From positions 1 to 24,494 of IMG/VR virus record IMGVR_UViG_2778261179_000018: a DNA stretch of 24,494 bases. One strand, 5' to 3'. This DNA comes from a virus (Duplodnaviria > Heunggongvirae > Uroviricota > Caudoviricetes). The translations under genes and the position numbers were made by a program. The notes under the pieces were generated by a model, which was given only the letters and a program-made list of their open reading frames with translations, was not told where the DNA came from and did not search any database. Shown here piece after piece: positions 1 to 17,872 of the stretch. Positions within the stretch are counted from its first letter, which is position 1; each line of letters starts with the position of its first letter.

Positions 1-1254
1 ATGCCAAAACTCACAGACATGCAGATCCGCGCGTGGATTAAAAGCGGCGAACGATTCGAGGGGCGGGCCGATGGCGACGGCCTATATCTGAGGTTTCGAA
101 AAGAGGATAAAACTCCTTTTTGGCGGTATCGGTACAAGCTGGTGGGGAAGGCCCGCACCATGATGATCGGTTCTTATTCCGATTTTTCACTGGCAAAAGC
201 CCGAGATATAGCGAAAGAGCTATCCGCACGGGTAGCGCTCGGGTATGACGTAGCCGCAGAGAAGCAGGAGCGCAAAGCGGAGGCAATAGCGAAGATTGAG
301 GCCGAGAAGAACGCCATACACGTTTCAGAGCTCGCAGCTGAGTATTACGCCCGCCAGATAGAAACCACTTACAAACACCCGGAGCTTTTCCGCAGCAGCC
401 TGCAGAAGAATATCGTAGCCCTGATCGGGAAGATGAAGGTAGAGGACGTTCGCCCGCGGCACATTGATAGCGTCCTACAGGATGTTTTAGAGCGCGGATC
501 TCCCACGGTAGCTAATGATGTACTTCGCATGCTCAAACGCCTGTTTGATTATGCTGTGGTGCGTGGAATGATAGAGGTTAACCCGGCGATATCCTTTGGT
601 TCCAAAGATGCAGGCGGGAAGGAGCAGGGGCGCAAACGTGCGTTAAGCCGTGATGAGCTGGTTATGTTCTTCAAGGCGCTACGCCGCGGCCGCGGAATCA
701 GTAGAGAGAATGAGCTGACGTTCAAGATTATTCTGGCGCTTGGGGTGCGTAAAATGGAGTTGTGCGCCGCCGAATGGTCGGAGTTCGACCTTGATAACGA
801 GGTGTGGCACCTCCCTGGCTCGCGGGCAAAGAATGGTGATGACATCGATATTCCGCTGCCGGCGCCAGTGATCGAATGGATTAAAGAGATTCGACTTTTC
901 GCCGGCGATAGCCGTTGGTTAATTCCGGCCAGACGCGCCAGAACAACGGCTCACGTTAGCCGGGCCACGCTGAATATGGTTATGCCGTCCGTTTTGAAAG
1001 AAATGGCTGACGTAGAGCCGTTCAGTATCCACGACCTACGGCGCACCATGCGTACGCAGATGGCGGCAATAGGTATTGACCCAGTAATAGCTGAGCGCTG
1101 CTTAAACCACAAAATACCTGGCATAGAGGGCATTTATAACCGTCACCAGTATTTTGATGAGCGTAAAGCGGCTTTGGCTCAATGGGCTGATCTGCTAGTG
1201 GCATTGGAAAGCGGTGAAGATTACAACGTAACACCGCTAAGAAAAACGAATTAA
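1..1254 (+). CDS. int: Tyrosine recombinase / phage integrase, P4-type (IntA/IntS-like)
   Basis: N-terminal arm-binding signature (MPKLTD..IRAWIKSG...DGDGLYLRF...WRYRYK) and C-terminal catalytic region (HDLRRTMRTQM ... GIYNRHQY) typical of P4-family integrases; 417 aa. Sits at window start, so the tRNA/tmRNA target is presumably just upstream and not visible. Confidence 0.9.
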   Translation: MPKLTDMQIRAWIKSGERFEGRADGDGLYLRFRKEDKTPFWRYRYKLVGKARTMMIGSYSDFSLAKARDIAKELSARVALGYDVAAEKQERKAEAIAKIEAEKNAIHVSELAAEYYARQIETTYKHPELFRSSLQKNIVALIGKMKVEDVRPRHIDSVLQDVLERGSPTVANDVLRMLKRLFDYAVVRGMIEVNPAISFGSKDAGGKEQGRKRALSRDELVMFFKALRRGRGISRENELTFKIILALGVRKMELCAAEWSEFDLDNEVWHLPGSRAKNGDDIDIPLPAPVIEWIKEIRLFAGDSRWLIPARRARTTAHVSRATLNMVMPSVLKEMADVEPFSIHDLRRTMRTQMAAIGIDPVIAERCLNHKIPGIEGIYNRHQYFDERKAALAQWADLLVALESGEDYNVTPLRKTN

Positions 1255-1346
1255 ATGGACAGGTTGAGCCTAATCCGACGGGGTGAAAAGCGGAAGCCTT
1301 ACCGCCTGGCTCAATTTTCTAAGGTATTGCGTGAAAAGGTAACGTA

Positions 1347-2400: not shown

Positions 2401-2604
2401 ATGTTCACAGACACTATCCCCACCAAAGGTTACATCCGCCGCTTTCGCCTAGCCAAACTGCTGGGCGTTAGCGTATCCACTATCGACCGTAAAGTGCGCA
2501 ACGGCTCACTCCCGCGCCCGGTGAAACTGGGTGATAAGATTACCGCATTTGATGCGGTGGAGATACATAACTGGCTGGCAGAATGCCGCGGGAAGGTGGC
2601 CTGA
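2401..2604 (+). CDS. alpA: AlpA-family transcriptional regulator / excisionase-like HTH protein
   Basis: 67 aa; LAKLLGVSVSTIDRKVRNGSLPRPVKLGDK..AF...EI..WL matches the AlpA/phage Xis-like HTH pattern; RBS AGGAAG upstream; int-ORF-alpA arrangement as in CP4-57-type islands. Confidence 0.85.
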   Translation: MFTDTIPTKGYIRRFRLAKLLGVSVSTIDRKVRNGSLPRPVKLGDKITAFDAVEIHNWLAECRGKVA

Positions 2605-3038
2605 TGAAAAAAGAAAACCGCCCCGGACAGCAGGCGGCTAACACAGATAATCGCGGATCTGATGTTACGCCAGCCACCAGCTACAAACAAGCCCCACGAC
2701 GCACACCGAAGAAGCATCGCGCCCGCGTTTATATGCTGCGTACCGGCGTTGAGGGATGGACAGAGAACGATATCTTGCGCTACTGCCGGCTTTCTTCTGG
2801 CCGGAACTACGCCACAGAGCTGGAACGTGAACTGAGTATTTGCCTGGAACGTCTGGAAGAGAAAAATCCGGATGGGATCGGCGCTCATATGCGTTACCGC
2901 TTTGCGTGCCGCAACGATGTGATGAAGGTTATCCAGTTCGTTAACCACATGGCCGCTATTAATCAGCACCGTGGGCTTTCTGTGCAGGATATTACCGACA
3001 TTCTGAACCTCTACCCGGACAACCTCACCGCCGCATAA
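2604..3038 (+). CDS. Hypothetical protein (island-associated, basic N-terminus)
   Basis: ORF-track frame 2583..3038; start chosen at ATG 2604, which overlaps the alpA stop (TGATG coupling). No recognisable domain. Confidence 0.55.
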   Translation: MKKENRPGQQAANTDNRGSDVTPATSYKQAPRRTPKKHRARVYMLRTGVEGWTENDILRYCRLSSGRNYATELERELSICLERLEEKNPDGIGAHMRYRFACRNDVMKVIQFVNHMAAINQHRGLSVQDITDILNLYPDNLTAA

Positions 3039-3051
3039 CGGAGCCTGACAA

Positions 3052-3861
3052 ATGAAAATCGAAAAAAGCCGATTCAATTCGGAGGCCGCCCCTCAACCTG
3101 ACGTTAACCAGGGCGTAATTAACGGTAACGACTTTGCCGCTGTTGTCCCTGTTATTTCCGGTCAGATTGGCGGGCGCGAAACCAATATGGCGAGCGCTAG
3201 AGCACTGCATAAAGCGCTGGGCGTGGGTCGAGACTTCACCACCTGGATTAAAGGGCGCATTAGTCAGTATGGTTTTGCCGCAGGTGTAGATTACATCACC
3301 GTTGAAAATTTGAGCTCACCCGTTTCGGGGAGCGCAAAATTTCGCCAGCAAATCGAGCATGATTACCTTCTCTCGCTGAACATGGCTAAAGAAGTGGCAA
3401 TGGTTGAACGCAACGAACAGGGCCGCGCCGTCCGCCGCTATTTCATCCAGTGCGAGGAAGCGTTACAGCTGAGTGCGCCAGAAATCGCCGCGAAGTACCG
3501 CCGTCACCTCAAAGCCCGCATTGGTGCTGCCAACCTCTTTAAGCCGATGTGCGCTGCTCTGGATGCTGCTCGCGCAGAACAGGGGAAAGAGACGCAAGGC
3601 CGCCACTACAGCAACGAAAGCAACATGATCGCCCGCATCGTGCTGGGTGGCATGACCGCTAAGCAGTGGGCGCAGGTGAACGGTATAGACGGCGAACCTC
3701 GCGATAGCATGAGTGCCGGCCAACTGGAGCACCTCAGCTATCTGGAGAGCACCAACATCACGTTGATCGATATGGGTATGCAGTACAACCAGCGCAAAGC
3801 GGAATTAACCCGCCTGTCTCAGCGCTGGCTGGCTAAACGCATGGGGGTTAACGATGAATAA
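3052..3861 (+). CDS. Phage antirepressor (AntA-like N-terminal domain with KilAC-like C-terminal region)
   Basis: Motif ARALHKALGVGRDFTTWIKGRISQYGFAAGVDYI resembles the AntA/AntB antirepressor domain; 269 aa; RBS GGAG upstream. Confidence 0.7.
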   Translation: MKIEKSRFNSEAAPQPDVNQGVINGNDFAAVVPVISGQIGGRETNMASARALHKALGVGRDFTTWIKGRISQYGFAAGVDYITVENLSSPVSGSAKFRQQIEHDYLLSLNMAKEVAMVERNEQGRAVRRYFIQCEEALQLSAPEIAAKYRRHLKARIGAANLFKPMCAALDAARAEQGKETQGRHYSNESNMIARIVLGGMTAKQWAQVNGIDGEPRDSMSAGQLEHLSYLESTNITLIDMGMQYNQRKAELTRLSQRWLAKRMGVNDE

Positions 3862-4057
3862 GCCCACCAGCACGCGGACGCATCTGGCGTCATTTTATGC
3901 CGGAGATCGAGACAGCGGGAGAGCACCCTATCAGCAGAATAATTCGCTGAAAAATGAGGGGTGCGTCAGCGGGCCTAACGCGGGAAATTCTGGCGTGTTC
4001 AAATTGGCCGGATTTTATGGTTGTTTGCTGGTGGTGATCGGTAACGGTGCCGACCGC

Positions 4058-4088
4058 CAAAAGAAAAAGGGCAGGATTCTGCCCTTTG
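4058..4088 (-). terminator. Rho-independent terminator for the minus-strand RHH gene
   Basis: On the minus strand: AAGGGCAG-aatc-CTGCCCTT hairpin followed by TTTCTTTT; preceded by a second hairpin AAAGCCC-gaatca-GGGCTTT (plus coordinates 4091-4112) right after the gene stop. Confidence 0.5.
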
Positions 4089-4116
4089 GTACCAAAGCCC
4101 TGATTCGGGCTTTGAG

Positions 4117-4296
4117 TCATTCCGATTCTTTGGGCTTCTTGCGCTGCCGGCGTTTGATCTCGCCCTTTGCAGCCGTAATCAGAAATCCGGCCGTACTTTC
4201 ACCCTCTTCTTTCAGTTTCTCTATCTCTTCCAAATCATCGAGAGGGAGTCTTACCGAAAGCTGTAGGGAGCGATTGTTCTTCCTACCTGTTGCCAT
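4117..4296 (-). CDS. Small ribbon-helix-helix (CopG/Arc-like) DNA-binding protein, putative regulator
   Basis: Minus-strand ORF (track 4117..4335); start taken at MATGRKNNRSLQLSVRLPLDDLEEIEKL... with RBS AAGAGG 8 nt upstream; beta-strand then helix pattern (LSVRLP / DDLEEIEKLKEEG) typical of RHH. Confidence 0.5.
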   Translation of the reverse strand: MATGRKNNRSLQLSVRLPLDDLEEIEKLKEEGESTAGFLITAAKGEIKRRQRKKPKESE

Positions 4297-4316
4297 TACT
4301 GAAACCTCTTGCCTTA

Positions 4317-4400
4317 GGTGGTGTTCAGTATACACATCAAAATTGATAATAAAACACTTGAAGTGGTGTTCACTAGGTTATACAGTGGTGGTGTTCACCT
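4317..4400. repeat. Three direct iterons GTGGTGTTCA(C/G); third copy contains TGTTCACC
   Basis: GGTGGTGTTCAGT 4317-4329, GTGGTGTTCACT 4363-4374, GTGGTGGTGTTCACC 4386-4400, in the divergent region between the RHH gene and the rightward small-ORF/primase operon. Confidence 0.6.
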
Positions 4401-4717
4401 TATCCACAGCTAAAGCACAGGTAAGGCACAAAACGGCGAAGCCCAGAGGTGCGCCAACACCTTCCGGGCTCCTGACCACCAGCGATAGAATCAGTATCGA
4501 GGTAGCTATGTCAAATCGTATCACACCCCTGACCGGGCGGCATCGCTCAGCCCTAATTTATTCCTCAGGCGCTTTCTGGCGCTCAACCGCCACGACAAAA
4601 AGGCCAGGCCCTGCCGCCTGTCCGTCGAGGCCGCAACCGAACGTGAAGCCCGCCGTATTCTGGCGCCGCACTTCATCCTTTCTCTGGCTGCTCGCCTGCC
4701 GCTGGTGGGGGTGCGTC

Positions 4718-4897
4718 ATGCTTAAAACCTTCCAGATTGACGGGTACGCGGTTAATAAGCGCGGTAACACCGTCGGCATTCACTACACCCTGACCAGCGA
4801 CAGCCCGGATACAGCCAAATCAACCGCGCAACTACTGGCGCAGCAGGGCGGCTATCAGCACGTTCGCATTACCCGCGTTCAGGAGGTAGCAGCATGA
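4718..4897 (+). CDS. Hypothetical small protein (start uncertain)
   Basis: C-terminal part of track ORF 3854..4897; MLKTFQIDGYAVNKRGNTVGIHY... looks protein-like, whereas the upstream part of the same frame is R/W/C/P-rich and overlaps the iterons and the minus-strand RHH gene. Stop overlaps the next start. Confidence 0.4.
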   Translation: MLKTFQIDGYAVNKRGNTVGIHYTLTSDSPDTAKSTAQLLAQQGGYQHVRITRVQEVAA

Positions 4898-5157
4898 AAA
4901 TTAACACCATCTGTCGCCATCCTGCAGAGCTTGAGGCCGAGGCAATGTTATTCCGTAAACAGCCTTACCCTGACTCTTTCTCGCTGGCAGAGCGTACCGC
5001 GGAACGCATGACCCGCGCCCGCAATGGTCTGGCTCACATTATGACAGAGCTGGCACCACGCCTCGACGATGAGCAAGCGGCCATCGTGCATTGCTGGCTG
5101 GATAAAGTCCTGGCGATTGTCGATATAACCCGAATTGATGCAGAGGCCAGTTTATGA
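4894..5157 (+). CDS. Hypothetical protein
   Basis: 87 aa; strong RBS AGGAGG upstream; translationally coupled to the next ORF (ATGA overlap). Confidence 0.6.
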   Translation: MKINTICRHPAELEAEAMLFRKQPYPDSFSLAERTAERMTRARNGLAHIMTELAPRLDDEQAAIVHCWLDKVLAIVDITRIDAEASL

Positions 5158-5375
5158 GCGGAAAAATCACGATGAAAAGAGATGTTTTCGAGGTCATCAC
5201 TGATGCTGAGCATGCCATTGGCTACTCCAACCAGGCGCTGGCGGTTCTTGACCTATGGCTGGATAGCGTGGGCATTGAAGACGATACCGAAGCGAACCGT
5301 ATCGCGGCGGTTCACAGCCTTGTGTGTGAGTCTCTGACCTGGCTTAAAAAAGCAGCCGGTATTAACGAGGAATAA
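5154..5375 (+). CDS. Hypothetical protein
   Basis: 73 aa; ATGA overlap with the upstream ORF. Confidence 0.55.
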   Translation: MSGKITMKRDVFEVITDAEHAIGYSNQALAVLDLWLDSVGIEDDTEANRIAAVHSLVCESLTWLKKAAGINEE

Positions 5376-5380
5376 AAATC

Positions 5381-5602
5381 ATGGTGAAAAATAATTCTGG
5401 CTCATCTGCCAGTGGTCTCGCTCACCCTGAAATCCTCCACGGCGATAAATGGGCAGATAAAAGCGGTGTACGGGTAATTATCGAAAGCTGCCGGTTCAAC
5501 AGAGTTAAATTTTACCGCGAAGGCTATCAGTCGCCGTGTATTTACCCCGAGCAGCGGTTTATCAAAGAGTTTTCACTAATACAGGGGGCCGTCCATGAAT
5601 AA
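5381..5602 (+). CDS. Hypothetical protein
   Basis: 73 aa; RBS GAGGAA 9 nt upstream; overlaps the next start by 8 bp. Confidence 0.45.
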   Translation: MVKNNSGSSASGLAHPEILHGDKWADKSGVRVIIESCRFNRVKFYREGYQSPCIYPEQRFIKEFSLIQGAVHE

Positions 5603-6167
5603 ACAATCTTATCCGGAAGCTGGCCCCGATGGCGTTATTACCGGCTCCGGGCTGGTGAGCTTTCTTTCGGTAACGGAAAGCCTTAGCCGCGGTGATTATG
5701 ACCGCAACCCGGAGGAAGGCATGGGTCTTGCCTGTGCCGCGCTGGATGGCGTGGCCCTGACGTGGTTCGCGGCAGCGCCAGAACAACATGCTGCTCTCTG
5801 GCGGTGGATTGTTGCGGCGGCATTTGTCGAGGAACAGGTGAAAAATAACGGAAATATCGACGTGATGTGCGAAGATGGCCGCAAAGTTAAGGCAGCTGTC
5901 TATGCCGGGAAATGCGGCGCTATAACCGTTTACCCGGTAGCGGAGCGTGTTGCTCTGGCAAGCCAGGTTGAGGGGTACGCTTTACAGAAATACGGTACTA
6001 CAACGGGTATGGATCTGGCTATCCAGCATTACCAGACGATGCTCGAATGGCGTGATGGCATTTACTGCCTGTCAGATCATGGCCGGGATATTCTTTCCGA
6101 TCTGCACGACAACCTTATCGCCACCATTCACGCCAGTGGTGTTCCTGCGATGCCAACGGAGCACTAA
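5595..6167 (+). CDS. Hypothetical protein
   Basis: 190 aa; RBS AGGGGG upstream; sits directly before the primase in the same operon. Confidence 0.6.
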   Translation: MNKQSYPEAGPDGVITGSGLVSFLSVTESLSRGDYDRNPEEGMGLACAALDGVALTWFAAAPEQHAALWRWIVAAAFVEEQVKNNGNIDVMCEDGRKVKAAVYAGKCGAITVYPVAERVALASQVEGYALQKYGTTTGMDLAIQHYQTMLEWRDGIYCLSDHGRDILSDLHDNLIATIHASGVPAMPTEH

Positions 6168-6171
6168 GCGT

Positions 6172-8856
6172 ATGAAGCGTGCAATTGAGCTTATCCACGA
6201 AGTGAAGCGCCGAACTGCCGGAAGCTGGGAAAGTGTGCTGCCGCAGTGCGGGGTGACGGTTCCGCCGAAAGGTCGTCACGGACCCTGCGCCATCTGCGGC
6301 GGTTCTGACCGCTTTCACTTTATTGACGACCACGGCGGCGGCGAGTGGCATTGTCGCCAGTGTGACGAACCGAATCATGGCGACGGTCTGGATCTCATCG
6401 CCAGAGCGCACGGTATTACCATAACCGCAGCGGCGCAGAAGGTGGCCTCTGTGTTGGGTGTAGATGCCCGGACACCGGAACCGAAGTCGGCCAGAGAGAA
6501 GCCTCAAACGGATATCGCCGGGAAAGTCGCCGGGATGGCCGCTAAAGCTGCGTCCGGACAGTCAGCCTATCTCACATCAAAGGGGCTTCAGTGCCCCTTC
6601 CCGTTGATGCCTGACGGGTCGCTGCTGATGGTGCTGAAAAACGGCGCTGGCGCTGTCACCGGCGCACAGGGGATTAAGCCAGACGGCAATAAGCGGCTGG
6701 TGGCCGGAACGGTGAAGAAAGGCTCCTTCTGTGTGGTTAATTCCGTTGAATCGCCGGAAAAGGTGGTTATCGCTGAAGGACTGGCAACCACGCTCTCAGT
6801 TAACCTGATGCGGCCCGATGCGCTGGCTGTCGTTGCCGTTGATGCCGGGAACCTGCTGCCCGTAGCGGAGGTTATGCGCCGGCGATACCCTGAGGCGCGG
6901 ATCATTATCGCTGCCGATAACGACATAAAGCCGGGAGAGCCAAACACAGGCAAAGAGGCTGCGGATAAAGCTGCTAAAGCCGTCTCTGGCTGGGTGGCTT
7001 TACCGCCAACAGTGAAAAAGGCCGACTGGAACGACTACCACCAGCAGCATGGCCTGGAAGCCGCTACAACGGCGTTTAAGAATTCGATGTATCAACCGCA
7101 GGAGCCTGAAGTGTCCGCGAGACTGCAAGTGATCAACGGAGGGAAGAAAGGCGCATCAAAACCTGAATCTCTGCGATCTCATGTCGAAAGCCGTGCTGAC
7201 GGTATTTTTTGGGTTGAGCCAAAATCAGACAAAGATACCGGGGAAATAACTACCCGTGAAAGCTGGCTGTGTTCTGCTCTGGAGGTCATAGGTACTGGCA
7301 TAGATGACAGTAAAACCCGGTATCTGATCCTGCGCTGGCGCCCATTCGGTTCGAAGGGGGATACTGTCCAGGCAATACCATTTGCTGATATCGGTGAACG
7401 CGAAGGCTGGCGAACGCTCAAGGCTGGTGGGGTGAACGTCACAACCAAAAGTGGTTTACGTGCAACGTTGGCCGACTGGCTGCAGAGCTGTGCCAATGGT
7501 GAGGTATGGCGCATTGCGCATGCTACGGGCTGGCAGTGTGGCGCCTACATCATGCCTGATGGCGAGATCATTGGTACTCCAGATCAACCGGTGCTGTTTA
7601 ACGGACGAAGTTCTGCCGCATCCGGTTATACCACCAGCGGTACTGTTGAGAGCTGGCGAGAGTGCGTTGGACGTCTGGCCTTTGGCAACTACTCGATGAT
7701 GACTGGCGTGGCCGCAGCGCTGGCAGCTCCTTTGATTGGCCTTGCCGGCGCTGATGGTTTTGGTATCCATCTCTATGAGCAGTCGAGCGCGGGTAAGACC
7801 ACCACTGCCAATGTGGCCTCCAGTCTCTATGGCAATCCGGATGTGCTACGCCTCACCTGGTACGGTACTGCGCTGGGGCTGGCGAACGAAGCCGCCGCAC
7901 ATAACGATGCGCTGATGCCGCTTGACGAAATTGGCCAGGGTGCTGACCCGGTGGAGGTCTACAAATCGGCATACGCACTGTTTAACGGCACGGGTAAGCT
8001 GCAGGGAGCGAAGGAAGGCGGAAACCGTGACCTGAAGCGCTGGCGTACTGTGGCCATCAGTACCGGTGAGATGGATCTGGAAACCTTCATCGCGAGCGCC
8101 GGTCGCAAGGCTAAAGCAGGCCAGCTGGTTCGCCTGCTGAATATCCCGATGCGCCGGGCTGTTCGTTTCCATGAACATGCCAACGGCAAACACCATGCCG
8201 ATGCCCTCAAAGATGCATACCAGCATCACCACGGAGTGGCTGGGCGTGAGTGGGTGAAGTGGCTGGCGGACCACCAGCACGAGGCTGTAAGCGCTGTCAG
8301 GGCAGCGGAAGAGCGCTGGCGTAGCCTGATCCCGTCGGATTACGGGGAGCAGGTCCATCGTGTTGGCGCCCGGTTTGCCATTCTGGAGGCCGCACTATTG
8401 TTAGGTAATGTGATCACCGGCTGGGATGAGCAGACGTGTCGGGATGCCATTCAGTACAGCTATAACGCCTGGCTGCGCGAGTTTGGTACCGGCAATAAAG
8501 AACACCAGCAAATTATCGAGCAGACAGAGGCATTCCTGAACGCCTACGGGATGAGCCGTTTTGCACCGTTCCCATATGACCCGACTAGCCTCCCTATCTC
8601 CAACATGGCGGGATACCGGCAGAAAGGCGGGCACGAGACTGACCCGATAGTGTTCTACACCTTCCCGGCAGCCTTCGAAGGGGAGATCGCCCGCGGCTTT
8701 AACTCCCGTCAGTTTGCGGAGGTATTGAAGAAAGCTGGCATGCTGACGCCACCGACTTCAGGCCGGGGATTCCAGAGAAAGTCGCCACGCATTGATGGGC
8801 GACAGATTCGGGTTTATGTCCTGCAGTATCTGCCGGACGACGACCAGCCAGAGTAA
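6172..8856 (+). CDS. Primase-helicase (zinc-binding domain + Toprim + P-loop NTPase; P4 alpha / DUF927-type)
   Basis: Start at MKRAIELIHEV (track ORF begins earlier at 5947 but overlaps the upstream gene). Zinc finger CAICGGSDRFHF...HCRQCD; Toprim acidic motifs VVIAEGLATT and IIIAADNDIKPGE; P-loop-like YEQSSAGKTTT; about 894 aa. Confidence 0.85.
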   Translation: MKRAIELIHEVKRRTAGSWESVLPQCGVTVPPKGRHGPCAICGGSDRFHFIDDHGGGEWHCRQCDEPNHGDGLDLIARAHGITITAAAQKVASVLGVDARTPEPKSAREKPQTDIAGKVAGMAAKAASGQSAYLTSKGLQCPFPLMPDGSLLMVLKNGAGAVTGAQGIKPDGNKRLVAGTVKKGSFCVVNSVESPEKVVIAEGLATTLSVNLMRPDALAVVAVDAGNLLPVAEVMRRRYPEARIIIAADNDIKPGEPNTGKEAADKAAKAVSGWVALPPTVKKADWNDYHQQHGLEAATTAFKNSMYQPQEPEVSARLQVINGGKKGASKPESLRSHVESRADGIFWVEPKSDKDTGEITTRESWLCSALEVIGTGIDDSKTRYLILRWRPFGSKGDTVQAIPFADIGEREGWRTLKAGGVNVTTKSGLRATLADWLQSCANGEVWRIAHATGWQCGAYIMPDGEIIGTPDQPVLFNGRSSAASGYTTSGTVESWRECVGRLAFGNYSMMTGVAAALAAPLIGLAGADGFGIHLYEQSSAGKTTTANVASSLYGNPDVLRLTWYGTALGLANEAAAHNDALMPLDEIGQGADPVEVYKSAYALFNGTGKLQGAKEGGNRDLKRWRTVAISTGEMDLETFIASAGRKAKAGQLVRLLNIPMRRAVRFHEHANGKHHADALKDAYQHHHGVAGREWVKWLADHQHEAVSAVRAAEERWRSLIPSDYGEQVHRVGARFAILEAALLLGNVITGWDEQTCRDAIQYSYNAWLREFGTGNKEHQQIIEQTEAFLNAYGMSRFAPFPYDPTSLPISNMAGYRQKGGHETDPIVFYTFPAAFEGEIARGFNSRQFAEVLKKAGMLTPPTSGRGFQRKSPRIDGRQIRVYVLQYLPDDDQPE

Positions 8857-8886
8857 AAGCATTCTTCCATGTGTGTAGTTTAGGTG

Positions 8887-8996
8887 TTGGTTCAGTTGGT
8901 TCAGTTGCCTCAGTAGTTATATATATCTGTTTAATAAGGGTTCTGGTTTAAAAAATGAACCAACATTGAGGCAACAAACGGGCATTTTGAACCAAC
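8887..8996. repeat. Iteron cluster flanking an AT-rich spacer; candidate replication origin
   Basis: GTTGGTTCA at 8887 and 8896, GTTGCCTCA at 8905, AT-rich 8914-8955, then inverted copies TGAACCAAC at 8956 and 8988 and TGAGGCAAC at 8967; immediately downstream of the primase-helicase gene. Confidence 0.55.
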
Positions 8997-9037
8997 ACAG
9001 AATCAGGTACAGGGCATCAGAAGAGAGGATCACAGCT

Positions 9038-9253
9038 ATGACAGCTCAAATTTCAGCATATGGCCGGCTGGTGGCCGACCCACAGACCCGAACAACCGGG
9101 AAAGGAACAACCATGGCTACGGCCCGTCTTGCGGTAGCTCTGCCCTGTAATGTCGCAGAGAACGGAGAGGCTACTTTCTGGCTGGGTGTCATTGCCTTTG
9201 GTAAGCAGGCTGATGCTCTGGCCAAACACCATAAAGCCGTATCACCAGATTAA
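9038..9253 (+). CDS. SSB-like OB-fold protein, apparently 3'-truncated
   Basis: Start at MTAQISAYGRLVADPQTR with RBS GAGAGGA. Pattern GRLVADP..R...G...A.LAVAL ... W.GVIAFGK.A resembles the N-terminal two-thirds of bacterial SSB, but the ORF stops at about 71 aa just before the AT-rich block. Confidence 0.4.
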   Translation: MTAQISAYGRLVADPQTRTTGKGTTMATARLAVALPCNVAENGEATFWLGVIAFGKQADALAKHHKAVSPD

Positions 9254-9536
9254 TTCGCTGTTGTTACGCGGGGAGAGCGTACCTGATGCCTAGACAAGCC
9301 ATCGCCGAATCACCGGGCTGGCATCAACCTACACATGCAACCTGTAAGTACGACTAAAGCCGTAAAATGGTATGGTCGACAATGCGATTTTTTTTGGCGT
9401 GATGTGCTTTACGGCTAGCAAAAAACGATTATTGGTTAACATTATTGTGTTTTATGTTTACATAAAATGGTTTATGATTTACATGTGTTCGAAAGGGATG
9501 ACTCTTTTTGAAGTCATCAATTTTTCCGGAAAAGGT

Positions 9537-10643
9537 ATGAAAGTGTTAGTTGACGATATTGTTGCTCTTATAGAAGCGTCTTTAGATGCAAACTATTCTG
9601 AAGTACGTAGTGTGAGCAATCGAATTGCCAAAGCTATAAGTACCGATAATATGGATGGTGCGAAAAAAATAAAATCTGTTTTACGACGTAAGGGGGTGCC
9701 GTTACGTAGTTCAGGTTACAGCGATAGCCTACCCGTTGATCCAAAGTCAAGAATGCCCTTGGTAGAAGAGCATCAATGGCCTGTCACGCCTCTTTTCTTA
9801 GAGGAGAGCGAACAGGATACCTTTAACACTTTTGTTGAAAGTGTAAAGCAACAAGATAAGCTGATTGCGAATGGACTAGTTGGTAAACTAGGTTTGCTGC
9901 TTTCTGGGCCGCCAGGAACAGGTAAGACATTGATTGCAGGACATATAGCGTCACAACTTAATAGACCACTTTATGTGGTGAGATTAGATTCTGTAATTTC
10001 TTCACTTCTTGGTGATACAGCAAAGAACCTAAGACAGATCTTTGATTTTGTACCGTCAAAAAATGGTGTTTTATTTCTCGACGAAGTTGATGCCGTTGCA
10101 AAAGTAAGAGATGACCGCCATGAAATAGGAGAACTGAAAAGAGTAGTAAATACATTAATTCAAGGTTTAGACTCTCTTGATGATAGTTCTATAGTTATAG
10201 CTGCGACCAATCACTCTGAATTACTTGATCCTGCTATCTGGAGACGTTTTCCTTTTAAAATACGTCTCGATTTCCCTTCCCAGGAATTACGAGAGTTCTT
10301 ATGGAGTCATTTTTTATTCGGTGATAAAGGCCCGATTAAGGAGTTAAAGGCGTTAGGTATTGTTTCAAATGGACTAAGTGGTGCTGATATTGAAACTATA
10401 GCTATTTCGGCGAGGAGACAATCAGTATTATCGAATACACCTTTGAATATTCCTTCTGTATTGTTATCAATTATGGACAGTGAATACAATAATTCAGTGA
10501 TGCCTAACACTAAGGAACCAAGTTTACATACCAAGAAAAGATTGATAAATCTTTTATACGAAGCAAAATCTTTCACACAGACAGAAATTGCCAGCCTATT
10601 AGGTTTGAGTAGGCAGACAATTTCAAGCCATTTAAAGGAGTAA
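9537..10643 (+). CDS. AAA+ ATPase (classic clade) with C-terminal HTH; IetA-like candidate
   Basis: Walker A GPPGTGKT, Walker B VLFLDEVD, sensor-1 AATN, arginine-finger region DPAIWRRF; C-terminal HTH-like TQTEIASLLGLSRQTISSHLKE. Start ambiguous (ATGs at 9483, 9498, 9537); the track start 9372 is rejected. Strongly AT-rich. Confidence 0.8.
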   Translation: MKVLVDDIVALIEASLDANYSEVRSVSNRIAKAISTDNMDGAKKIKSVLRRKGVPLRSSGYSDSLPVDPKSRMPLVEEHQWPVTPLFLEESEQDTFNTFVESVKQQDKLIANGLVGKLGLLLSGPPGTGKTLIAGHIASQLNRPLYVVRLDSVISSLLGDTAKNLRQIFDFVPSKNGVLFLDEVDAVAKVRDDRHEIGELKRVVNTLIQGLDSLDDSSIVIAATNHSELLDPAIWRRFPFKIRLDFPSQELREFLWSHFLFGDKGPIKELKALGIVSNGLSGADIETIAISARRQSVLSNTPLNIPSVLLSIMDSEYNNSVMPNTKEPSLHTKKRLINLLYEAKSFTQTEIASLLGLSRQTISSHLKE

Positions 10644-10647
10644 TGCT

Positions 10648-12876
10648 ATGGCAGATGGTAATAACCGTAAGAAAGTGTTGAACCCTCTACTTTCGTATTT
10701 GGAGGACCCTGCGCCAAAAGCGATTAATGGTGGAGGCAAGAATGCTGACGATATTCAGTGGGCTAGGTTAGATATTCAAAAAGAGACTTTAAGTAAAAGT
10801 CTTAAAAGTATCAGTGAAAACAAATCTATTATAGCTCACGCTGGTAAAATCCATCTGCTAATTAAAATGTTTGATGATTCATTAGCACCTTCATGGACCC
10901 CGACGGATTTATTTGAAACAAATCCTTTTACTAGACTAGTTTCTCCTGCATACAACGGATTTTTAGTTGAAACAAGCAAAGAAAAGATACCTGAAATTAT
11001 CAAGAAGATAAAAACTGCTAGCAATGATAGAATTAAAGTAGATGTGTCACGACTTGAAAGTATAAAGGCATTTGATAGGAGCGCAGTTTTAAGAGGGAAA
11101 AGCTTATCTGACTTTGATTTTAGTAATGATGGAAACCAGTTTAATATTTGGATTTTACCATTTCATGATCCAAATGCGCGCTTTTCGGTTGCTGAGGAGT
11201 TAGAGGATCTTGTTGATGAGGATGTTATTACGTTTGGTGAATCCATTTATGACAATGTTTTTGATGGAGAAAAAAGAACCTCTGGTACTCGTTCCTTCAA
11301 AAGAAAGTTAAAGCAATATCTATCGCATGGACATTTAACATTTACAGCAGTAGTAAAAAATAATAATGACTTCATAAAGTTAATTGGATCCGGAGCTATA
11401 TATAGAATCGAACCGGTTAAGAAGGTGACAACTAGGTCATTGCCTCCTGGTGAAGGAGAAGAGCCTTCACCAAAACTGATTAATAAAGAAACCGCTCCCG
11501 TTGTAGTTATAGTTGATGGTGGTTGTTCATCGAAGTCTTACTTGCCATTGAATGTGATTAACATTAATCCGCTTATTGATAGCTATCATGCAGATTTAAA
11601 ACATGGCAATTGCGTAACTTCATTGGTTTGCCAGGGCGGAGCTTGGAATAATAAATTACACTTACCACAATTAGAGTGTAAATTTGTTAGCGTACAAGCT
11701 ATAAGTAAGAGAGATGTAAGCCCTCAACCAACCACCGAGCAGTTCATTAATTATCTAAGAGTTGTGGCGGAGAAAACTAAAAATGTTTCTTCTGTTTGGA
11801 ATCTATCATTTAATGAGGCTTCGCCATCCGATAGTGTTGATGAAATTAGTAGGTTGGGACATGAAATAAGTCTTCTGGCTCGCGAATTTAATATATTACC
11901 CGTGATTTCAATTGGTAATGTTAACTCTGACAACCCAACTACCTTATGTCCTCCTGCTGATTGTGAAGCGGCATTGACTGTATCAGGTAGAAAAGCATCT
12001 ATTTTAGGTGAGATCTCTTCACATTGTCCAAAAAGTTTGCGTGGACCTGCTCCTGGTGGAATGAAGAAGCCTGAGCTTTCTTGGTTTTCTAAATTGAGGA
12101 TGTTAGGTGGAGATGTTAAGACAGGTACAAGCTTTAGTGCGCCCTTGATATCAAGCATTGCGGCTCACACGTTCAAAAATCTAAAAGAGCCAACTCCAGA
12201 TTTAGTTAAGGCATTACTGATAAACAAAGCTGAAGGTATTGAGCATGATCTTGGCCTAGGTTGGGGGTCTCCATGGAGGAAAGGGAGTTCTATGCCATGG
12301 ATGTGTGAAGATGGAACTGTGACATTAGCTTGGAATTCTAAATTAAAAGCTGGTAGTGCATATTATTGGAATAATATTCCTATCCCTCCTGAAATGATTG
12401 TAGATGGAAAGATTAAAGGTAGTATTATTCTTACTGCCATCTTAAAGCCAGTAGTTTCTGAATTAGCAGGGGATAACTATTTTTCAACAAGATTACAATG
12501 TGCACTACAGCATGTAAATAATGCAGGCAAGGCCAAAAATCTTCTTGGTACTATGAAAGAGTCAACCGAAAAGGAAATTGATTCCAGAAGTGAATTAGCT
12601 AAATGGAGCCCGATTAGACATCATGGTAAAAGCTTTAAAGGGGTTGCCGTTGATAATAACAAAGTAAGGCTTTATGCGCGTATTTTTACAAGAGATCTTT
12701 TCCAATTTAATTATGCGAGTCATCATGAGTTAGATGAACAAGATGTGGCATTTGTTTTGACCTTTAAAAGTCCTAGCGACGATCCATCAATTTACGACTC
12801 AATGAAGCAACAACTTGGTAACAAGGTCAAAGCTGCGATAATAGAACAGGATATTATTCTGGATAGTGATGTTTGA
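10648..12876 (+). CDS. S8 family subtilisin-like serine peptidase; IetS-like candidate
   Basis: 742 aa; RBS AAGGAG 8 nt upstream; 4-bp gap after the ATPase gene. Candidate catalytic motifs in subtilase order: Asp VVVIVDGGCS, His HGNCVTSLV, Ser GTSFSAPLISSIAAH. AT-rich like its partner. Confidence 0.8.
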   Translation: MADGNNRKKVLNPLLSYLEDPAPKAINGGGKNADDIQWARLDIQKETLSKSLKSISENKSIIAHAGKIHLLIKMFDDSLAPSWTPTDLFETNPFTRLVSPAYNGFLVETSKEKIPEIIKKIKTASNDRIKVDVSRLESIKAFDRSAVLRGKSLSDFDFSNDGNQFNIWILPFHDPNARFSVAEELEDLVDEDVITFGESIYDNVFDGEKRTSGTRSFKRKLKQYLSHGHLTFTAVVKNNNDFIKLIGSGAIYRIEPVKKVTTRSLPPGEGEEPSPKLINKETAPVVVIVDGGCSSKSYLPLNVININPLIDSYHADLKHGNCVTSLVCQGGAWNNKLHLPQLECKFVSVQAISKRDVSPQPTTEQFINYLRVVAEKTKNVSSVWNLSFNEASPSDSVDEISRLGHEISLLAREFNILPVISIGNVNSDNPTTLCPPADCEAALTVSGRKASILGEISSHCPKSLRGPAPGGMKKPELSWFSKLRMLGGDVKTGTSFSAPLISSIAAHTFKNLKEPTPDLVKALLINKAEGIEHDLGLGWGSPWRKGSSMPWMCEDGTVTLAWNSKLKAGSAYYWNNIPIPPEMIVDGKIKGSIILTAILKPVVSELAGDNYFSTRLQCALQHVNNAGKAKNLLGTMKESTEKEIDSRSELAKWSPIRHHGKSFKGVAVDNNKVRLYARIFTRDLFQFNYASHHELDEQDVAFVLTFKSPSDDPSIYDSMKQQLGNKVKAAIIEQDIILDSDV

Positions 12877-13352: not shown

Positions 13353-13538
13353 ATGTCCAGACAAAACGTAAACGTAAAACCGGTATTACTCAGTCACGAG
13401 CAGATAAAGGCGCTGAGTGACATTCAGGAGCAGCACCGCAAAACATCCAGTATCGGCGTTGCGCCAACTATCCATGAGATTGCACGCGGTCTGATGGATA
13501 AAGCGCTGGCGTCTCTCTCCGACGGAGTGAAAGTATGA
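13353..13538 (+). CDS. Small phage protein preceding the tape measure gene
   Basis: 61 aa; RBS GGGGGTGG upstream; ATGA overlap with the downstream gene. Confidence 0.5.
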   Translation: MSRQNVNVKPVLLSHEQIKALSDIQEQHRKTSSIGVAPTIHEIARGLMDKALASLSDGVKV

Positions 13539-15535
13539 ATGCTGAAACTCTGAAGGACTTTTTAATTAGCCTGGGCTTCAAAGTAGATGACGCCGGCGCC
13601 AGAAAATTTGATGCCATCGTTACCGGCGCGACACTCAAGGCGATCGAGCTCGGCACCAAAGTAGAGCTGGCCGCTGCGTCTGTGGTGGCCTTTACCGCGA
13701 AAGTCGCCAGCGGTCTCGATAACTTGTACTGGGCCTCTCAGCGCACTGGCGCAACGGTGCAGGGCATCAAGCAGATCGGCTTTGCCGTCAGCCAGATGGG
13801 CGGCAGTGTGGATGCCGCCCGCGGCTCTCTCGAAAGCCTGGCTCAGTTCATCCGTACCAGCTCCGGAGCCGAGGGTTTCCTGAATCGCCTTGGCGTTCAG
13901 ACCCGCGATGCCAGCGGAAACATGCGGGACATGACGACGATCTTTACCGGCGTCGGCCAGCGTCTCAGCAGCATGCCGTACTATCGCGCTAATCAGTACG
14001 CACAGATGCTCGGCATGGATGAAAACACGCTGCTGGCTATGCGTCGAGGCATTGGCGAGTACATGGGCCAGTATAACGCCATGAAAAAGGCTATCGGGTT
14101 TAATCCTGATCAGGCCGCCGCGGCATCTAACCGCTTTATGACCTCGTTGCGGTCGTTCGGCGAAATGGCCGGCATGGCGCGGGACAAAATCGGCTCTAAC
14201 CTCGCTGGTGGTCTAGCCGGTGCCATTGATAACCTTCGCCGCCAGATCCTTGATAACTTCCCGAAAATAGAGCGCACCATTAACGCAGTGGTGAAGGGTA
14301 TTCTTTGGATGGGGGAGGCCGTCGGACGGGTGGTCTATCGTCTGATACAGGCCGCGGGTGATATCCGGGACTGGTGGAAAGGGCTTGATGAAGACTCCAG
14401 GAAACTCATCGGCACGCTGGGTGGAATGCTGGTGGCCTGGCGATTGCTGAATGCCGCTATGCTCGCCTCTCCGATTACCTGGGTTCTGGCGCTTGCTGGT
14501 GCGCTTCTGCTGCTCTATGACGATTACAAGACGTGGAAAGAAGGCGGTAAAAGCCTCATTGACTGGGATAAGTGGGAGCCGGCGATAAACTTTGCGCTGA
14601 CTGCCATTGAAAAACTATGGACTGGTGTGAAGCGTCTTAAAGACGAGTTGATTAAACTTTTCGGTATCGACCCTAAAACATGGTCGATTAAGTTCGAATT
14701 CGACAGTCTGAAGAAGCAGTTCAATGAGCTGAGCAAGATGCTGGATACCATAGGCAAGCTTCTCAATGCGATTGATGAAGGTCGCTGGTCAGACGCGGCA
14801 GCTTACGCCAGACAACTGCTGAATCAGGGCGGCGAGCCGACACCATCAAACGCGGTGACAGACAGCGCCAATAGCGCTGCGGACTGGATTCAGAATAAAA
14901 CCGGGTTTGACCCCCGCAGTATTGGTCAAGCCGTTACTGGCTGGTTTGGTGGTGAAGCTACTCAATACGGGCAGTCTGTTAAACGACCTCAGGCCTCTAA
15001 AGCTGGCGCTCAGCTGCTGGGTTGGATGGCTCCGATGATGGGTAAACTGGAGGCGTTGTATAACCTCCCTGCGGGCCTGCTCCGTAGTGTTGCTCTCGCT
15101 GAGTCAAACGGCAATCAGTTTGCTGTGTCTGGCGCTGGCGCACAGGGAATGTTTCAGTTTATGCCGGGTACTGCCCGCGATATGGGCCTGCGCGGCAACG
15201 ATGTGTTTAACCCGATGAAAGCGGCGGAAGCGGCGGCGCGGTATCTCTCGATGCTCCTGCAGAAGAACGGCGGCGATCTGAATAAAACTCTGGCCTCCTA
15301 TAACTGGGGCATCGGTAATGTGCAGAAGTACGGCATGGCGCTGATGCCCGGGGAGACCCGTCAATATATCCCGAAAGTGCTCAGCAATATGCCGGGCAGC
15401 GGGGCAACGCTGAACCAGGAAACCAATATCCATATTCACGGCGTCAATAATCCGCGAGAGGCGGCCAATCTGGTGGTTGAAAGGCAGAACACTGTAAACA
15501 ATCGGGCAACCCAGGATCTGGGGAGGAGTAACTGA
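13535..15535 (+). CDS. Phage tail tape-measure-like protein with C-terminal lytic transglycosylase (SLT) domain
   Basis: 666 aa; coiled-coil-like N-terminal region, hydrophobic segment LIGTLGGMLVAWRLLNAAMLASPITWVLALAGALLLL, and SLT motif block AESNGNQFAVSGAGAQGMFQFMPGTARDMG...YNWG. Confidence 0.7.
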   Translation: MNAETLKDFLISLGFKVDDAGARKFDAIVTGATLKAIELGTKVELAAASVVAFTAKVASGLDNLYWASQRTGATVQGIKQIGFAVSQMGGSVDAARGSLESLAQFIRTSSGAEGFLNRLGVQTRDASGNMRDMTTIFTGVGQRLSSMPYYRANQYAQMLGMDENTLLAMRRGIGEYMGQYNAMKKAIGFNPDQAAAASNRFMTSLRSFGEMAGMARDKIGSNLAGGLAGAIDNLRRQILDNFPKIERTINAVVKGILWMGEAVGRVVYRLIQAAGDIRDWWKGLDEDSRKLIGTLGGMLVAWRLLNAAMLASPITWVLALAGALLLLYDDYKTWKEGGKSLIDWDKWEPAINFALTAIEKLWTGVKRLKDELIKLFGIDPKTWSIKFEFDSLKKQFNELSKMLDTIGKLLNAIDEGRWSDAAAYARQLLNQGGEPTPSNAVTDSANSAADWIQNKTGFDPRSIGQAVTGWFGGEATQYGQSVKRPQASKAGAQLLGWMAPMMGKLEALYNLPAGLLRSVALAESNGNQFAVSGAGAQGMFQFMPGTARDMGLRGNDVFNPMKAAEAAARYLSMLLQKNGGDLNKTLASYNWGIGNVQKYGMALMPGETRQYIPKVLSNMPGSGATLNQETNIHIHGVNNPREAANLVVERQNTVNNRATQDLGRSN

Positions 15536-16122
15536 TGGATATTCTTTCAACGCTGTTTCAGCAAAATAGCCGCAGAATCGGGTTAATGGTGCCAAGCGTT
15601 GTTGTTTCTGAAAAACACACTGACATGCTGGAGATTACCGAGCATCCCGTTGAACGCCCCACATCTGCTGGGGCTGGTTTTATTGCTGATCATGCGTATC
15701 GCCGACCCTCTGAAGTGGTAATGGAAATTGGCTTTGCTGGTGGTGGTTCACTGCTGGATTTCTACGACACCCGAAATATTGGACTGTCGACGCCGCTCAA
15801 CAGCATGGGCCCGAAAGAGGTTTATGCGGAGCTGCTGAATATGCAGCAAGGTAAGCAGTTGCTCGACGTCACCACGGGCAAGCGGTTGTACAAAAATATG
15901 CTGATCCGCTCTCTGGAGGTTACCACTGACCGAACTACTGAAAATGTATTATCGGCCACAGTGACACTTCGCGAAGTCATTATCACTCAGACAAAAAGCA
16001 TCAAGGTGGCTGATAAAGCCGATATGAAATATGGCGTAAACACCTCAGCCGTAATTAACACCGGAACTAAAACGCCAGTACCGAAAAATGAGTCCATTCT
16101 TTCCAGCGTGTTTGGAGGTTAA
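15535..16122 (+). CDS. Phage tail/baseplate structural protein (unassigned)
   Basis: 195 aa; TGATG-coupled to the upstream gene; RBS GGAG; position within the tail operon. Confidence 0.55.
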   Translation: MDILSTLFQQNSRRIGLMVPSVVVSEKHTDMLEITEHPVERPTSAGAGFIADHAYRRPSEVVMEIGFAGGGSLLDFYDTRNIGLSTPLNSMGPKEVYAELLNMQQGKQLLDVTTGKRLYKNMLIRSLEVTTDRTTENVLSATVTLREVIITQTKSIKVADKADMKYGVNTSAVINTGTKTPVPKNESILSSVFGG

Positions 16123-16428
16123 ATGTCCGTATCGGAAATTCCGTTAGCGCCCGATAGTCAGAGTTTTAATATCACCCTAGCTGGCGTTGATTATCAAATG
16201 CGCGTGGTCTGGCGCGGGGTATGTTGGTTCCTCGACCTGATGGACAGTACCGGTACGCTGATGATTGGCGGTATTCCGCTGATCACCGGCACTAATCTGC
16301 TGGCGCAGTACCATTATCTCGGCCTCGGGTTCTCGCTTTATGTGGTCTGTGATGACCCGGCCAGCGAAAACCCAACGCAGTTTGATCTTGGCATTAAAAG
16401 CCACCTGTACGCGAAAACTGAGGATTAA
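16123..16428 (+). CDS. Phage tail/baseplate protein (small, unassigned)
   Basis: 101 aa; RBS GGAGG; immediately follows the previous stop. Confidence 0.5.
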   Translation: MSVSEIPLAPDSQSFNITLAGVDYQMRVVWRGVCWFLDLMDSTGTLMIGGIPLITGTNLLAQYHYLGLGFSLYVVCDDPASENPTQFDLGIKSHLYAKTED

Positions 16429-16430
16429 CG

Positions 16431-17513
16431 ATGCCAAGAAACTGGAACCGACATTTTGAACTACAGCTCATCGACGATAACGGCGAGGGTATCAGCCTTA
16501 GCGACTTTAAAGTTGCCTTTAGCGTAGAGCGAAACGATAACCGATGGCCAGCTATGGCGCTGGTCAAAATCTATAACCTTGCCCCCGAAACCCAGAACCG
16601 TATCATGCGCCGTGAATACAGCAAGATAACCCTGATAGCGGGTTATGACGGGCTGGATAGTGCTTCCTCTGATACCGTAAGCGCCAGCGAGGTAGGGAAG
16701 GTGCGCTACGTAACAAATGACACCATAAATAGCCCTGATGGCTCAAATTACGGTGTCATTTTCAGCGGTGATATTGCTTTCACTGTGGAAGGCAAAGACA
16801 ACATTACCGATCGGTACGTCCGTATACAGGCATTTGACGGCGACAAGGCCTTTATGGAAGCGCAGATCAGCACCTCGCTGGCCGCCGGCTATACGCTGAG
16901 CGATGAGTACAATTTGCTCATGAAGCACCTTGAACCGTTCGGTATCCGTAAGGGGGTTGAGCCGGTTTTCCCTGGTACAGTCTATCCGCGAGCTGCGTCA
17001 TACCACGGCCTTGTGAACAACTATCTTTCCCGACTGGCTGATGACCTTCGTGCGACATGGCAATTCAGCTTTGGAAAGGTTGACTTCATTCAGCAGGATG
17101 TGGCGAAACACCGTGCAATCGTCCTGAACGCTGATACCGGGCTGGTGGGCATGCCGCAGCAGACCATTGGCGGAGGGGTGAATGTTACGTGTCTTATTAA
17201 TTCCTTCATTCAGTTACACGGGCTTATTCAGTTGGATCAGGCGTCAGTGTATCGTGCACAGTTGAGCAATGAGCAGGTTTTACAGGCTGGTGGTATTGCG
17301 CCGGAACAGGAAATTAACGGCAACCTTGTCACAAGTGGTCTGGCGCAGAGAGAGAATCCGGCGAGTGTTGCGACAGACGGTGTTTATATCGTCCGCTACC
17401 TCTCATATCGAGGCGATACGCGCGGGCAGGACTGGTACATGGATTTAGCTTGCGAAGCCCGAGGAAATGCTGACGTTCCCTCATCGTCTTACTTACTCAA
17501 ACAGGATTCTTAA
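16431..17513 (+). CDS. Putative baseplate hub protein (gp27 / late-control-D-like)
   Basis: 360 aa; RBS GAGGA; lies between the tape measure and the spike gene, the usual hub position. Assignment is by context and size, not by a recognised motif. Confidence 0.5.
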   Translation: MPRNWNRHFELQLIDDNGEGISLSDFKVAFSVERNDNRWPAMALVKIYNLAPETQNRIMRREYSKITLIAGYDGLDSASSDTVSASEVGKVRYVTNDTINSPDGSNYGVIFSGDIAFTVEGKDNITDRYVRIQAFDGDKAFMEAQISTSLAAGYTLSDEYNLLMKHLEPFGIRKGVEPVFPGTVYPRAASYHGLVNNYLSRLADDLRATWQFSFGKVDFIQQDVAKHRAIVLNADTGLVGMPQQTIGGGVNVTCLINSFIQLHGLIQLDQASVYRAQLSNEQVLQAGGIAPEQEINGNLVTSGLAQRENPASVATDGVYIVRYLSYRGDTRGQDWYMDLACEARGNADVPSSSYLLKQDS

Positions 17514-17863: not shown

Positions 17864-17872
17864 GGGGGAAGC

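Follow-up and report, generated by a model that had tools for sequence, protein, structure and literature searches.

Direct repeats over back-to-back promoters as probable operators of a YlcI/YnfO ribbon-helix-helix protein in a phage-satellite island

We analyzed a stretch of 24,494 nucleotides, hereafter the window, corresponding to positions 1 to 24,494 of the IMG/VR virus record IMGVR_UViG_2778261179_000018 (Caudoviricetes). In this window, a minus-strand gene encoding a 59-aa ribbon-helix-helix (RHH) protein of the YlcI/YnfO family lies back to back with a rightward operon that ends in the gene of a primase-helicase, and three exact direct copies of the decamer GTGGTGTTCA are found between the two, on the plus strand (Table 1). 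A previous sequence-only reading had reported the three copies and their place between gene and operon, correctly in both respects. The start-to-start spacing of the copies is 45 and 25 bp, and the base 3' of each is G, C and C, in order. The same reading had noted the octamer TGTTCACC in the last copy, named it as an iteron of the phage P4 alpha protein, and suggested that the repeats may be either a second binding site of the primase or the operator of the RHH protein. The octamer is present, in the third copy only (4392-4399). Allowing for up to one mismatch, the window has seven matches to the decamer when 1.05 are expected, and none of 100 shuffles reached seven. A fourth exact decamer, at 20938, falls within the open reading frame (ORF) of an IS3-type transposase and is most simply explained by chance; the related 12-kb loci have no extra copies outside the triad.

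The RHH protein matches the NCBIfam model NF041551 (YlcI/YnfO) with 45.1 bits (cutoff 30; E-value 7.5e-12), and its homologs are named "YlcI/YnfO family protein" in RefSeq. An identical protein is recorded on 243 contigs, under a name from Klebsiella pneumoniae. The predicted layout, with a beta-strand at residues ~10-17 and helices at 19-28 and 35-53, is that of the beta-alpha-alpha RHH fold. A sequence search among solved structures with the RHH profile returned only chance matches to RPN8 (E ~0.5), and no similarity to Mnt or Arc was detected by sequence. We found no match by tblastn of the protein in 50,697 phage records, hence the family seems to be specific to islands. The gene is followed by its own terminator-like hairpin and is thus predicted to be monocistronic. 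A 76-aa ORF at 3890-4120 was rejected as a gene: tblastn gave no match in any related locus, and the terminator-like hairpin lies inside it.

When their flanks are included (one extra base on each side and the CAC/CAG tail), the repeats are 13-mers with short inverted arms and an asymmetric core, which we call O1, O2 and O3. Such repeated, pseudo-symmetric sites lie here beside an RHH gene and over the core elements of two predicted promoters, P_L, leftward, for the RHH gene, and P_R, rightward, for the operon. A scan of positions 4000-4800 with the sigma-70 consensus gave no site at the 9-of-12 threshold because both promoters fall just below it; they were recovered by their conservation across species.

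Table 1. Features of the window, in order of position
Feature	Positions	Strand	Remarks
Integrase	1-1254		
int-alpA RNA	1263-1329		Rfam RF02996, 53 bits; directly past the integrase stop codon
AlpA	2401-2604		
AntA-type protein	3052-3861		
Intrinsic-terminator-like hairpin with T-run	4066-4087	-	9 pairs, tail TTCTTTTGGC; 30 nt past the RHH stop codon
RHH gene (YlcI/YnfO family), proposed repressor	4117-4296	-	59 aa
O1	4317-4329	+	GGTG-GTGTT-CAGT, decamer 4318-4327; overlaps last base of P_L -10 and predicted RHH transcription start
P_L -10 (TATACT), predicted	4327-4332	-	Leftward RHH promoter, from conservation; RHH transcription start near 4320
P_R -35 (TTGAAG), predicted	4358-4363	+	
O2	4362-4374	+	AGTG-GTGTT-CACT, decamer 4363-4372; begins on last -35 base, fills P_R spacer
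P_R -10 (TACAGT), predicted	4381-4386	+	17 bp past the -35; start near 4393
O3	4387-4399	+	GGTG-GTGTT-CACC, decamer 4388-4397; spans ~-6 to +4 of P_R
Conserved leader hairpin	4441-4469	+	GCCCAGAGGTG...CACCTTCCGGGC; in P_R leader (~4393-4507)
Icd-like gene, frameshifted	4508-4725	+	First of P_R operon; NF033153, 3e-18
Small ORFs of P_R operon	4718-4897, 4894-5157, 5154-5375	+	
DUF4222 gene	5381-5602	+	
ORF	5595-6167	+	
Primase-helicase	6160-8856	+	Zn-ribbon, Toprim and DUF927
Probable replication origin	8884-8998		Directly past the primase stop codon
SSB-like gene	8966-9253		
IetA (AAA ATPase) and IetS (subtilase)	9372-12876		Anti-phage defence pair, island cargo; PADLOC 3.5e-105 and 5e-70
Tail-type late genes (SLT-domain, Dit-like, gpV-like spike), then IS3-family transposase	13535-18616, 20569-21384		

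To place the repeats in a wider context, we searched for homologs of the RHH protein and obtained 123 clusters, from Enterobacterales. An alignment of 38 of these served to collect 80 genomic loci, with no more than one genome taken per species, and there are 75 distinct upstream regions among them. Nearly all loci have the same layout: counted from the ATG of the RHH gene, there is a site at 22, GTATAC at 32-37, an A-rich tract, TTGAnG at 62-67 and a site at 67. The O1 position is always trailed by GTATAC, with O2 at a strictly conserved distance of 45 bp from O1. Most specificity groups have a third site at ~90-102 from the same ATG, direct in some groups and inverted in others; a few groups or loci showed no more than two copies. 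As for the promoters, TATACT occupies the P_L -10 position in 57 of the 75 distinct regions, and 89% have a TAnnnT hexamer there. The TTGA of the P_R -35 starts 62 from the RHH ATG in 69 of the 75 (variants TTGACG, TTGAAG and TTGAGG), and a TAnnnT hexamer follows 17-18 bp past it in 74 of the 75 (e.g., TATATT in loci L003, L008 and L010). In an island of Aeromonas salmonicida that is taken up again below (L085, ~2925-3063), the O1/P_L segment is missing and the P_R -35 is ~25 nt from the MATG start; the RHH gene is called there with an N-terminal extension of 21 aa, and its expression may differ.

Site copies are the same or nearly so within a locus. Between loci, the 5-bp core changes, and the GTG...CA frame and the promoter hexamers are kept. 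Core and N-terminal RHH strand correspond nearly one to one (Table 2; several further pairs were found beyond the six tabulated). The Mantel correlation for this concerted change is r = 0.47, a value reached in none of 2000 permutations. Mutual information with the operator class is highest at two RHH residues, at 2.26 bit for residue 12 and 2.66 bit for residue 14, both of them alternate, non-hydrophobic positions of the strand, Q12 and S14 in the window, which would face outward in the two-stranded RHH ribbon; S10 and R16 are invariant across the alignment. RHH proteins 66-74% identical to that of the window but with a changed strand have a different operator, whereas at 74-77% identity an unchanged strand goes with an unchanged operator. 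Within the group of the window, 29 of the 30 site columns are invariant against 8 of the 67 other columns, an invariance matched by 25 of 20,000 random triples of 10-nt segments. In four members of this group, identity to the window falls to 31-39% elsewhere in the region and yet is 100% within the sites.

Table 2. Site types and the matching N-terminal strand of the RHH protein
Site	RHH strand	Loci
GTGGTGTTCA	..NN(R/K)SLQ(L/V)SVRL	11 loci, 11 genera (window counted as Klebsiella, its probable source)
GTGTATTTCA	..NAKSQMTTVRI	18 loci
GTGCGATTCA	..KSQQLNARF	9 loci
GTGGCTGACA	..KSKKLEARV	9 loci
GTGGGCCACA	..KSQ(S/A)LK(S/A)RV	3 loci
(G/A)TGTAAGACA	..SQS(V/I)T(A/V)R	4 loci

We made blind predictions of the operator core from the RHH strand in three cases, and all three held. 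EcCICFT073, the model Gram-negative phage-inducible chromosomal island (PICI) of Escherichia coli CFT073, was outside the first set of loci; its strand ..KSQALKARVP (S-A-K-R) predicts GGCCA, and the DNA reads TTGACG-GTGGGCCACA and TATA-GTGGGCCACA, with a deviant O1, GTGGGGGACA-GTATAC. An island of Aeromonas salmonicida with ..KSLQMSVRLP (S-Q-S-R), for which GTGTT is predicted, has two GTGGTGTTCA sites at the -35/-10 positions. The strand ..KSKKLEARVP (S-K-E-R) of a Salmonella Reading island predicts GCTGA, and three GTGGCTGACA sites are found, adjoining a replication gene of the AAA_25 type. Of the two options left by the sequence-only reading, the RHH operator is thus strongly supported by the fixed layout, the covariation of sites and strand and the three predictions. 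On these comparisons, the three repeats are very probably the operators of the adjacent YlcI/YnfO RHH protein, placed over back-to-back promoters in an island of PICI layout.

How the module might work is suggested by the positions of the sites. RHH dimers would insert their N-terminal beta-ribbon into the major groove at each ~13-bp site, (G/A)GTG-N5-CAC(C/T), where the invariant S10 and R16 would read the conserved GTG/CAC arms and residues 12 and 14 (Q and S in the window) the 5-bp core (GTGTT in the window). Because O2 is in the P_R spacer, O3 on the P_R start, and O1 on the edge of the RHH -10 and start, we argue for repression. Occupied O2 and O3 would keep RNA polymerase off P_R, leaving the icd-like gene, the primase-helicase and the SSB-like gene silent in the quiescent island, and an occupied O1, on the P_L -10 and transcription start, would limit the synthesis of the repressor itself. 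O1 is always the most deviant of the sites, its right arm being held to CAGTATAC with no CACC arm, and it is therefore probably the weakest, which fits negative autoregulation at high repressor levels. Binding, repression as opposed to activation, stoichiometry, cooperativity and the route of derepression are all points that we infer. Regarding the latter, AlpA-family proteins are reported to act as antiterminators in Pseudomonas (PMC7969949, PMC9371919). Transcription of the alpA operon is directed toward the RHH gene and the replication operon. The induction of AlpA might therefore let read-through transcripts of this operon extend across the RHH gene, in antisense, and on into the replication genes.

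Several observations weigh against such a repressor. The -35 hexamer of P_L, GTTTTA, is weak, and P_L is a promoter that we infer; P_R has 8 of the 12 consensus positions in the window, and both promoters were assigned solely by consensus and conservation. Since the RHH gene is contiguous with the sites, part of their covariation is linkage, which inflates simple covariation statistics; the argument draws on two points, namely that the three sites of a locus change in concert and that all other genes are mosaic. In EcCICFT073, helper phages induce alpA, and the overexpression of AlpA alone leads to primase-dependent replication (PMC6092414); a loss of viability is also reported for AlpA overexpression. 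Repression by the RHH protein would hence be bypassed through AlpA, or would not be dominant. This induction by AlpA alone might also be expected if the RHH protein binds the sites other than as a simple repressor of P_R, i.e., activates its own promoter from O2, builds a nucleoprotein structure for another process, or only autoregulates. In line with this, O2 is ~43-52 bp upstream of the predicted P_L start, a workable position for activators, at the strictly conserved distance from O1. Still, O2 and O3 occupy the classical positions for occlusion and retain them in every specificity group, including those with an inverted or shifted O3, which makes these roles quite improbable. Linkage could also mean that the RHH protein is a bystander and that the true binder is AlpA, AntA/Bro, the Icd-like protein, a small ORF product, or a factor of the helper phage or the host. 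However, the RHH protein is the sole window-encoded protein present in every locus of the GTGGTGTTCA group. For each of the Icd-like gene, DUF4222, AntA, AlpA and ORF151, several of these loci have either no copy or a highly diverged one. The icd-like gene is missing in three loci of this group, and Icd-like proteins 83-85% identical to that of the window adjoin another operator. A host factor is excluded since one and the same site is shared by 11 genera plus Aeromonas, and yet single genomes of Xenorhabdus or Yersinia have up to four islands with four site types. Together with the peak of site-type information at strand residues predicted to face the DNA, this leaves very little room for another binder.

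The other option of the sequence-only reading was that the repeats are P4-type iterons, a second cis site for the primase-helicase of the island, as ori and crr are for alpha. The identification of the octamer was accurate: in the P4 RefSeq record, TGTTCACC is the consensus of 16 annotated "ori type 1 repeats", 6 in ori and 10 in crr, in both orientations and with the variants T(A/C)TTCACC and TGTTCACA. P4 and the element of the window are moreover both integrase-carrying satellites with a zinc-ribbon and Toprim primase, and the N-terminal zinc-ribbon/Toprim part of the window primase is 35% identical to P4 alpha over 314 aa. Yet only one of the three copies contains the octamer, where it would arise by coincidence from the CACC arm of O3, and the conserved bases are offset: T(G)TTCACC is conserved in P4, with a variable 5' flank, and GTGG-TGTTCA in the window, with the last two bases variable, leaving the hexamer TGTTCA as the only stretch common to both. 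Consensus register, copy number, location and partner protein all differ from those of ori/crr and alpha, and the alignment of the repeat region to P4 (blastn-short), whose best match was 11 nt long (E 0.95), revealed no DNA similarity to ori or crr. The iteron-binding domain of P4 alpha lies at its C terminus. In that region alpha has D5_N, DUF5906 and Pox_D5, none of which is found in the window primase, where DUF927 takes their place (Pfam: Zn_Ribbon_Prim, Toprim_3, DUF927), and the BLASTP similarity between the two proteins is confined to residues 21-315. The repeats do not follow the initiator either. The GTGGTGTTCA group includes 7 primases of the DUF927 type, 3 of the P4-alpha type and one locus with neither within 6 kb. 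Conversely, three loci (L060, L074, L080) whose primases are 75-77% identical to that of the window have GTTGGTTCA as origin iteron, like the window, yet different operators, whereas L004 to L007 have its operator and other origin iterons. By these comparisons, operator and replication genes are cleanly and doubly dissociated. Finally, a probable origin of canonical type, with iterons that follow the primase, lies elsewhere in the window. The repeats being a cis site for the primase is contradicted on all these grounds and is almost certainly not the explanation; calling the GTGGTGTTCA repeats P4 iterons would be a tempting but wrong annotation.

This probable origin, the candidate binding site of the primase-helicase, has GTTGGTTCA twice in direct orientation (8886, 8895), TGAACCAAC twice inverted (8956, 8988) and an AT-rich core (~8915-8950), around which there is also a GTTGCCTCA/TGAGGCAAC pair. 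Published origins of Gram-negative PICIs consist of iteron sets around an AT-rich region by the pri/rep gene (PMC6092414, Fig. 2). Two iteron sets flanking an AT-rich region are found at this origin and not at the triad of 4317-4400. Among the loci with a DUF927 primase and a readable downstream flank, 13 of 13 have iterons directly past the primase gene, in clear sets flanking an AT-rich stretch in 12. The iteron sequence follows the primase across loci: GTTGGTTCA occurs in L011, L060, L074 and L080, with primases 69-77% identical to that of the window, GTCGGTTCA in L004 and L005, AACGGGTTA in L006, and a GGGATAACG-like iteron in L007.

The ORFs of the P_R operon form a chain with overlapping start and stop codons. 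The frame of the icd-like gene that ends at 4725 has no start codon and is one G short in a GGGCGGG tract (~4535-4540) relative to L021, L037 and L060, and the protein of the relatives (MSNR...GRASLSPN...) is in a single frame. Because of the missing G, the ATG at 4508 is out of register with the frame of the Icd domain, which could be a mutation or a sequencing error. Upstream of this gene, the leader hairpin is shared by all 24 diverse loci aligned, irrespective of the RHH type, with compensatory changes in 6 of its 13 pairs, and the reading frame over it differs between loci. The fold of the leader alone is unexceptional (z = -1.4), and the support for the hairpin comes from the alignment only. 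It is followed by a conserved CTCTnACCAC, a second small hairpin and the ribosome-binding site of the icd-like gene. Rfam searches of the window and 12 related loci revealed no immunity RNA of the P4 CI, P1 C4 or isrK type upstream of the icd-like gene and no family matching the leader hairpin; the matches were int-alpA RNA, tRNAs, one 5S rRNA and sub-threshold noise.

The published gene order of Gram-negative PICIs is Integration, Bro, Replication and Late (PMC10111431). The window has this order, with integrase, alpA, Bro/Ant, replication and late or accessory genes, and from its gene content the element is an integrated phage-satellite island with Gram-negative PICI layout. The tail-type genes were captured by the island as late genes or else belong to an adjoining prophage remnant. 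The int-alpA RNA also occurs in six related loci, where it mostly adjoins a tRNA gene. We found no match by megablast of positions 4100-4760 in complete E. coli genomes. EcCICFT073 has the gene order of the window: the RHH gene (L084 9474-9653, i.e., NC_004431 1380473-1380652) and its putative operators, again three, are flanked by alpA and the icd-like/primase operon. The high-numbered locus tag of this gene, C_RS30120, suggests that it was added in a later re-annotation. Genomes with multiple islands (L033/L063/L069/L070, L032/L067/L071/L075, L025/L057/L061/L079/L080, and others) nearly always have islands of different RHH/operator types. Pairs of the same type within a genome amount to 1 of 29 when ~3.5 are expected, a difference that is not statistically significant; their rarity is suggestive of heteroimmunity.

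RHH repressors with repeated operators on divergent promoters are of a familiar kind (P22 Mnt and Arc, omega, CopG). In the immI region of P22, Mnt and Arc are RHH repressors at divergent promoters, each with one symmetric operator of ~17-21 bp bound as tetramers; the repressor controls its own synthesis, and specificity resides in the N-terminal beta-strand. The module of the window resembles them in its small RHH gene divergent from an operon, an operator over the operon promoter, and the proposed self-control and strand specificity. It differs in having three ~13-bp sites 45 and 25 bp apart, and a replication operon where P22 has an antirepressor. The omega protein of plasmid pSM19035 (PDB 1irq, 2bnw), 17% identical in sequence to the RHH protein of the window, binds contiguous 7-bp heptads, whereas the sites of the window are separated 10-13-mers at fixed promoter positions. 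The lambda OR is a three-part operator between PRM and PR, bound by CI. The likeness lies in three operators between back-to-back promoters, two on the lytic or replication promoter and the most deviant on that of the repressor; the difference is that CI is a helix-turn-helix protein with 17-bp operators ~24 bp apart, and that cooperativity and activation are features of lambda. The Stl proteins are also of the helix-turn-helix type and are lifted by helper-phage proteins. In Gram-positive PICIs (the Staphylococcus aureus pathogenicity islands, SaPIs), the gene of the Stl/Rpr repressor is divergent from the excision/replication operon (PMC6092414). The RHH gene is at the equivalent position of the island, but Stl is large, the RHH protein has 59 aa, and the induction of Gram-negative PICIs goes through AlpA.

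The founding paper on Gram-negative PICIs called a global repressor of these elements "unclear" (PMC6092414), and EcCICFT073 has no known repressor. The YlcI/YnfO family is listed as a "prophage-associated protein" (PMC13612085) and is PHROG 949, of "unknown function". In the searchable literature, whose coverage is incomplete, we found no functional statement on this RHH family, and the literature searched on Gram-negative PICIs has no mention of the protein. The RHH gene with three putative operators on the promoter of the replication operon is found in EcCICFT073 and in islands of more than 30 genera. We thus tentatively propose, as a possibility that falls somewhat short of an even chance, that in a large share of Gram-negative PICIs and P4-like islands, EcCICFT073 among them, the YlcI/YnfO RHH protein is the still unrecognised master (immunity) repressor, with at least 15 mutually non-cross-reacting classes set by residues 12 and 14 against the 5-bp core. 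If true, co-resident islands would be regulated independently, and the AlpA pathway would have to override the RHH protein, e.g., by antiterminated read-through. The RHH/operator module makes the open question of the repressor of Gram-negative PICIs directly testable. The family is also a natural data set of many protein-operator pairs on one fixed scaffold, which may be used to work out a code of RHH-DNA recognition or as a source of orthogonal repressor-operator pairs.

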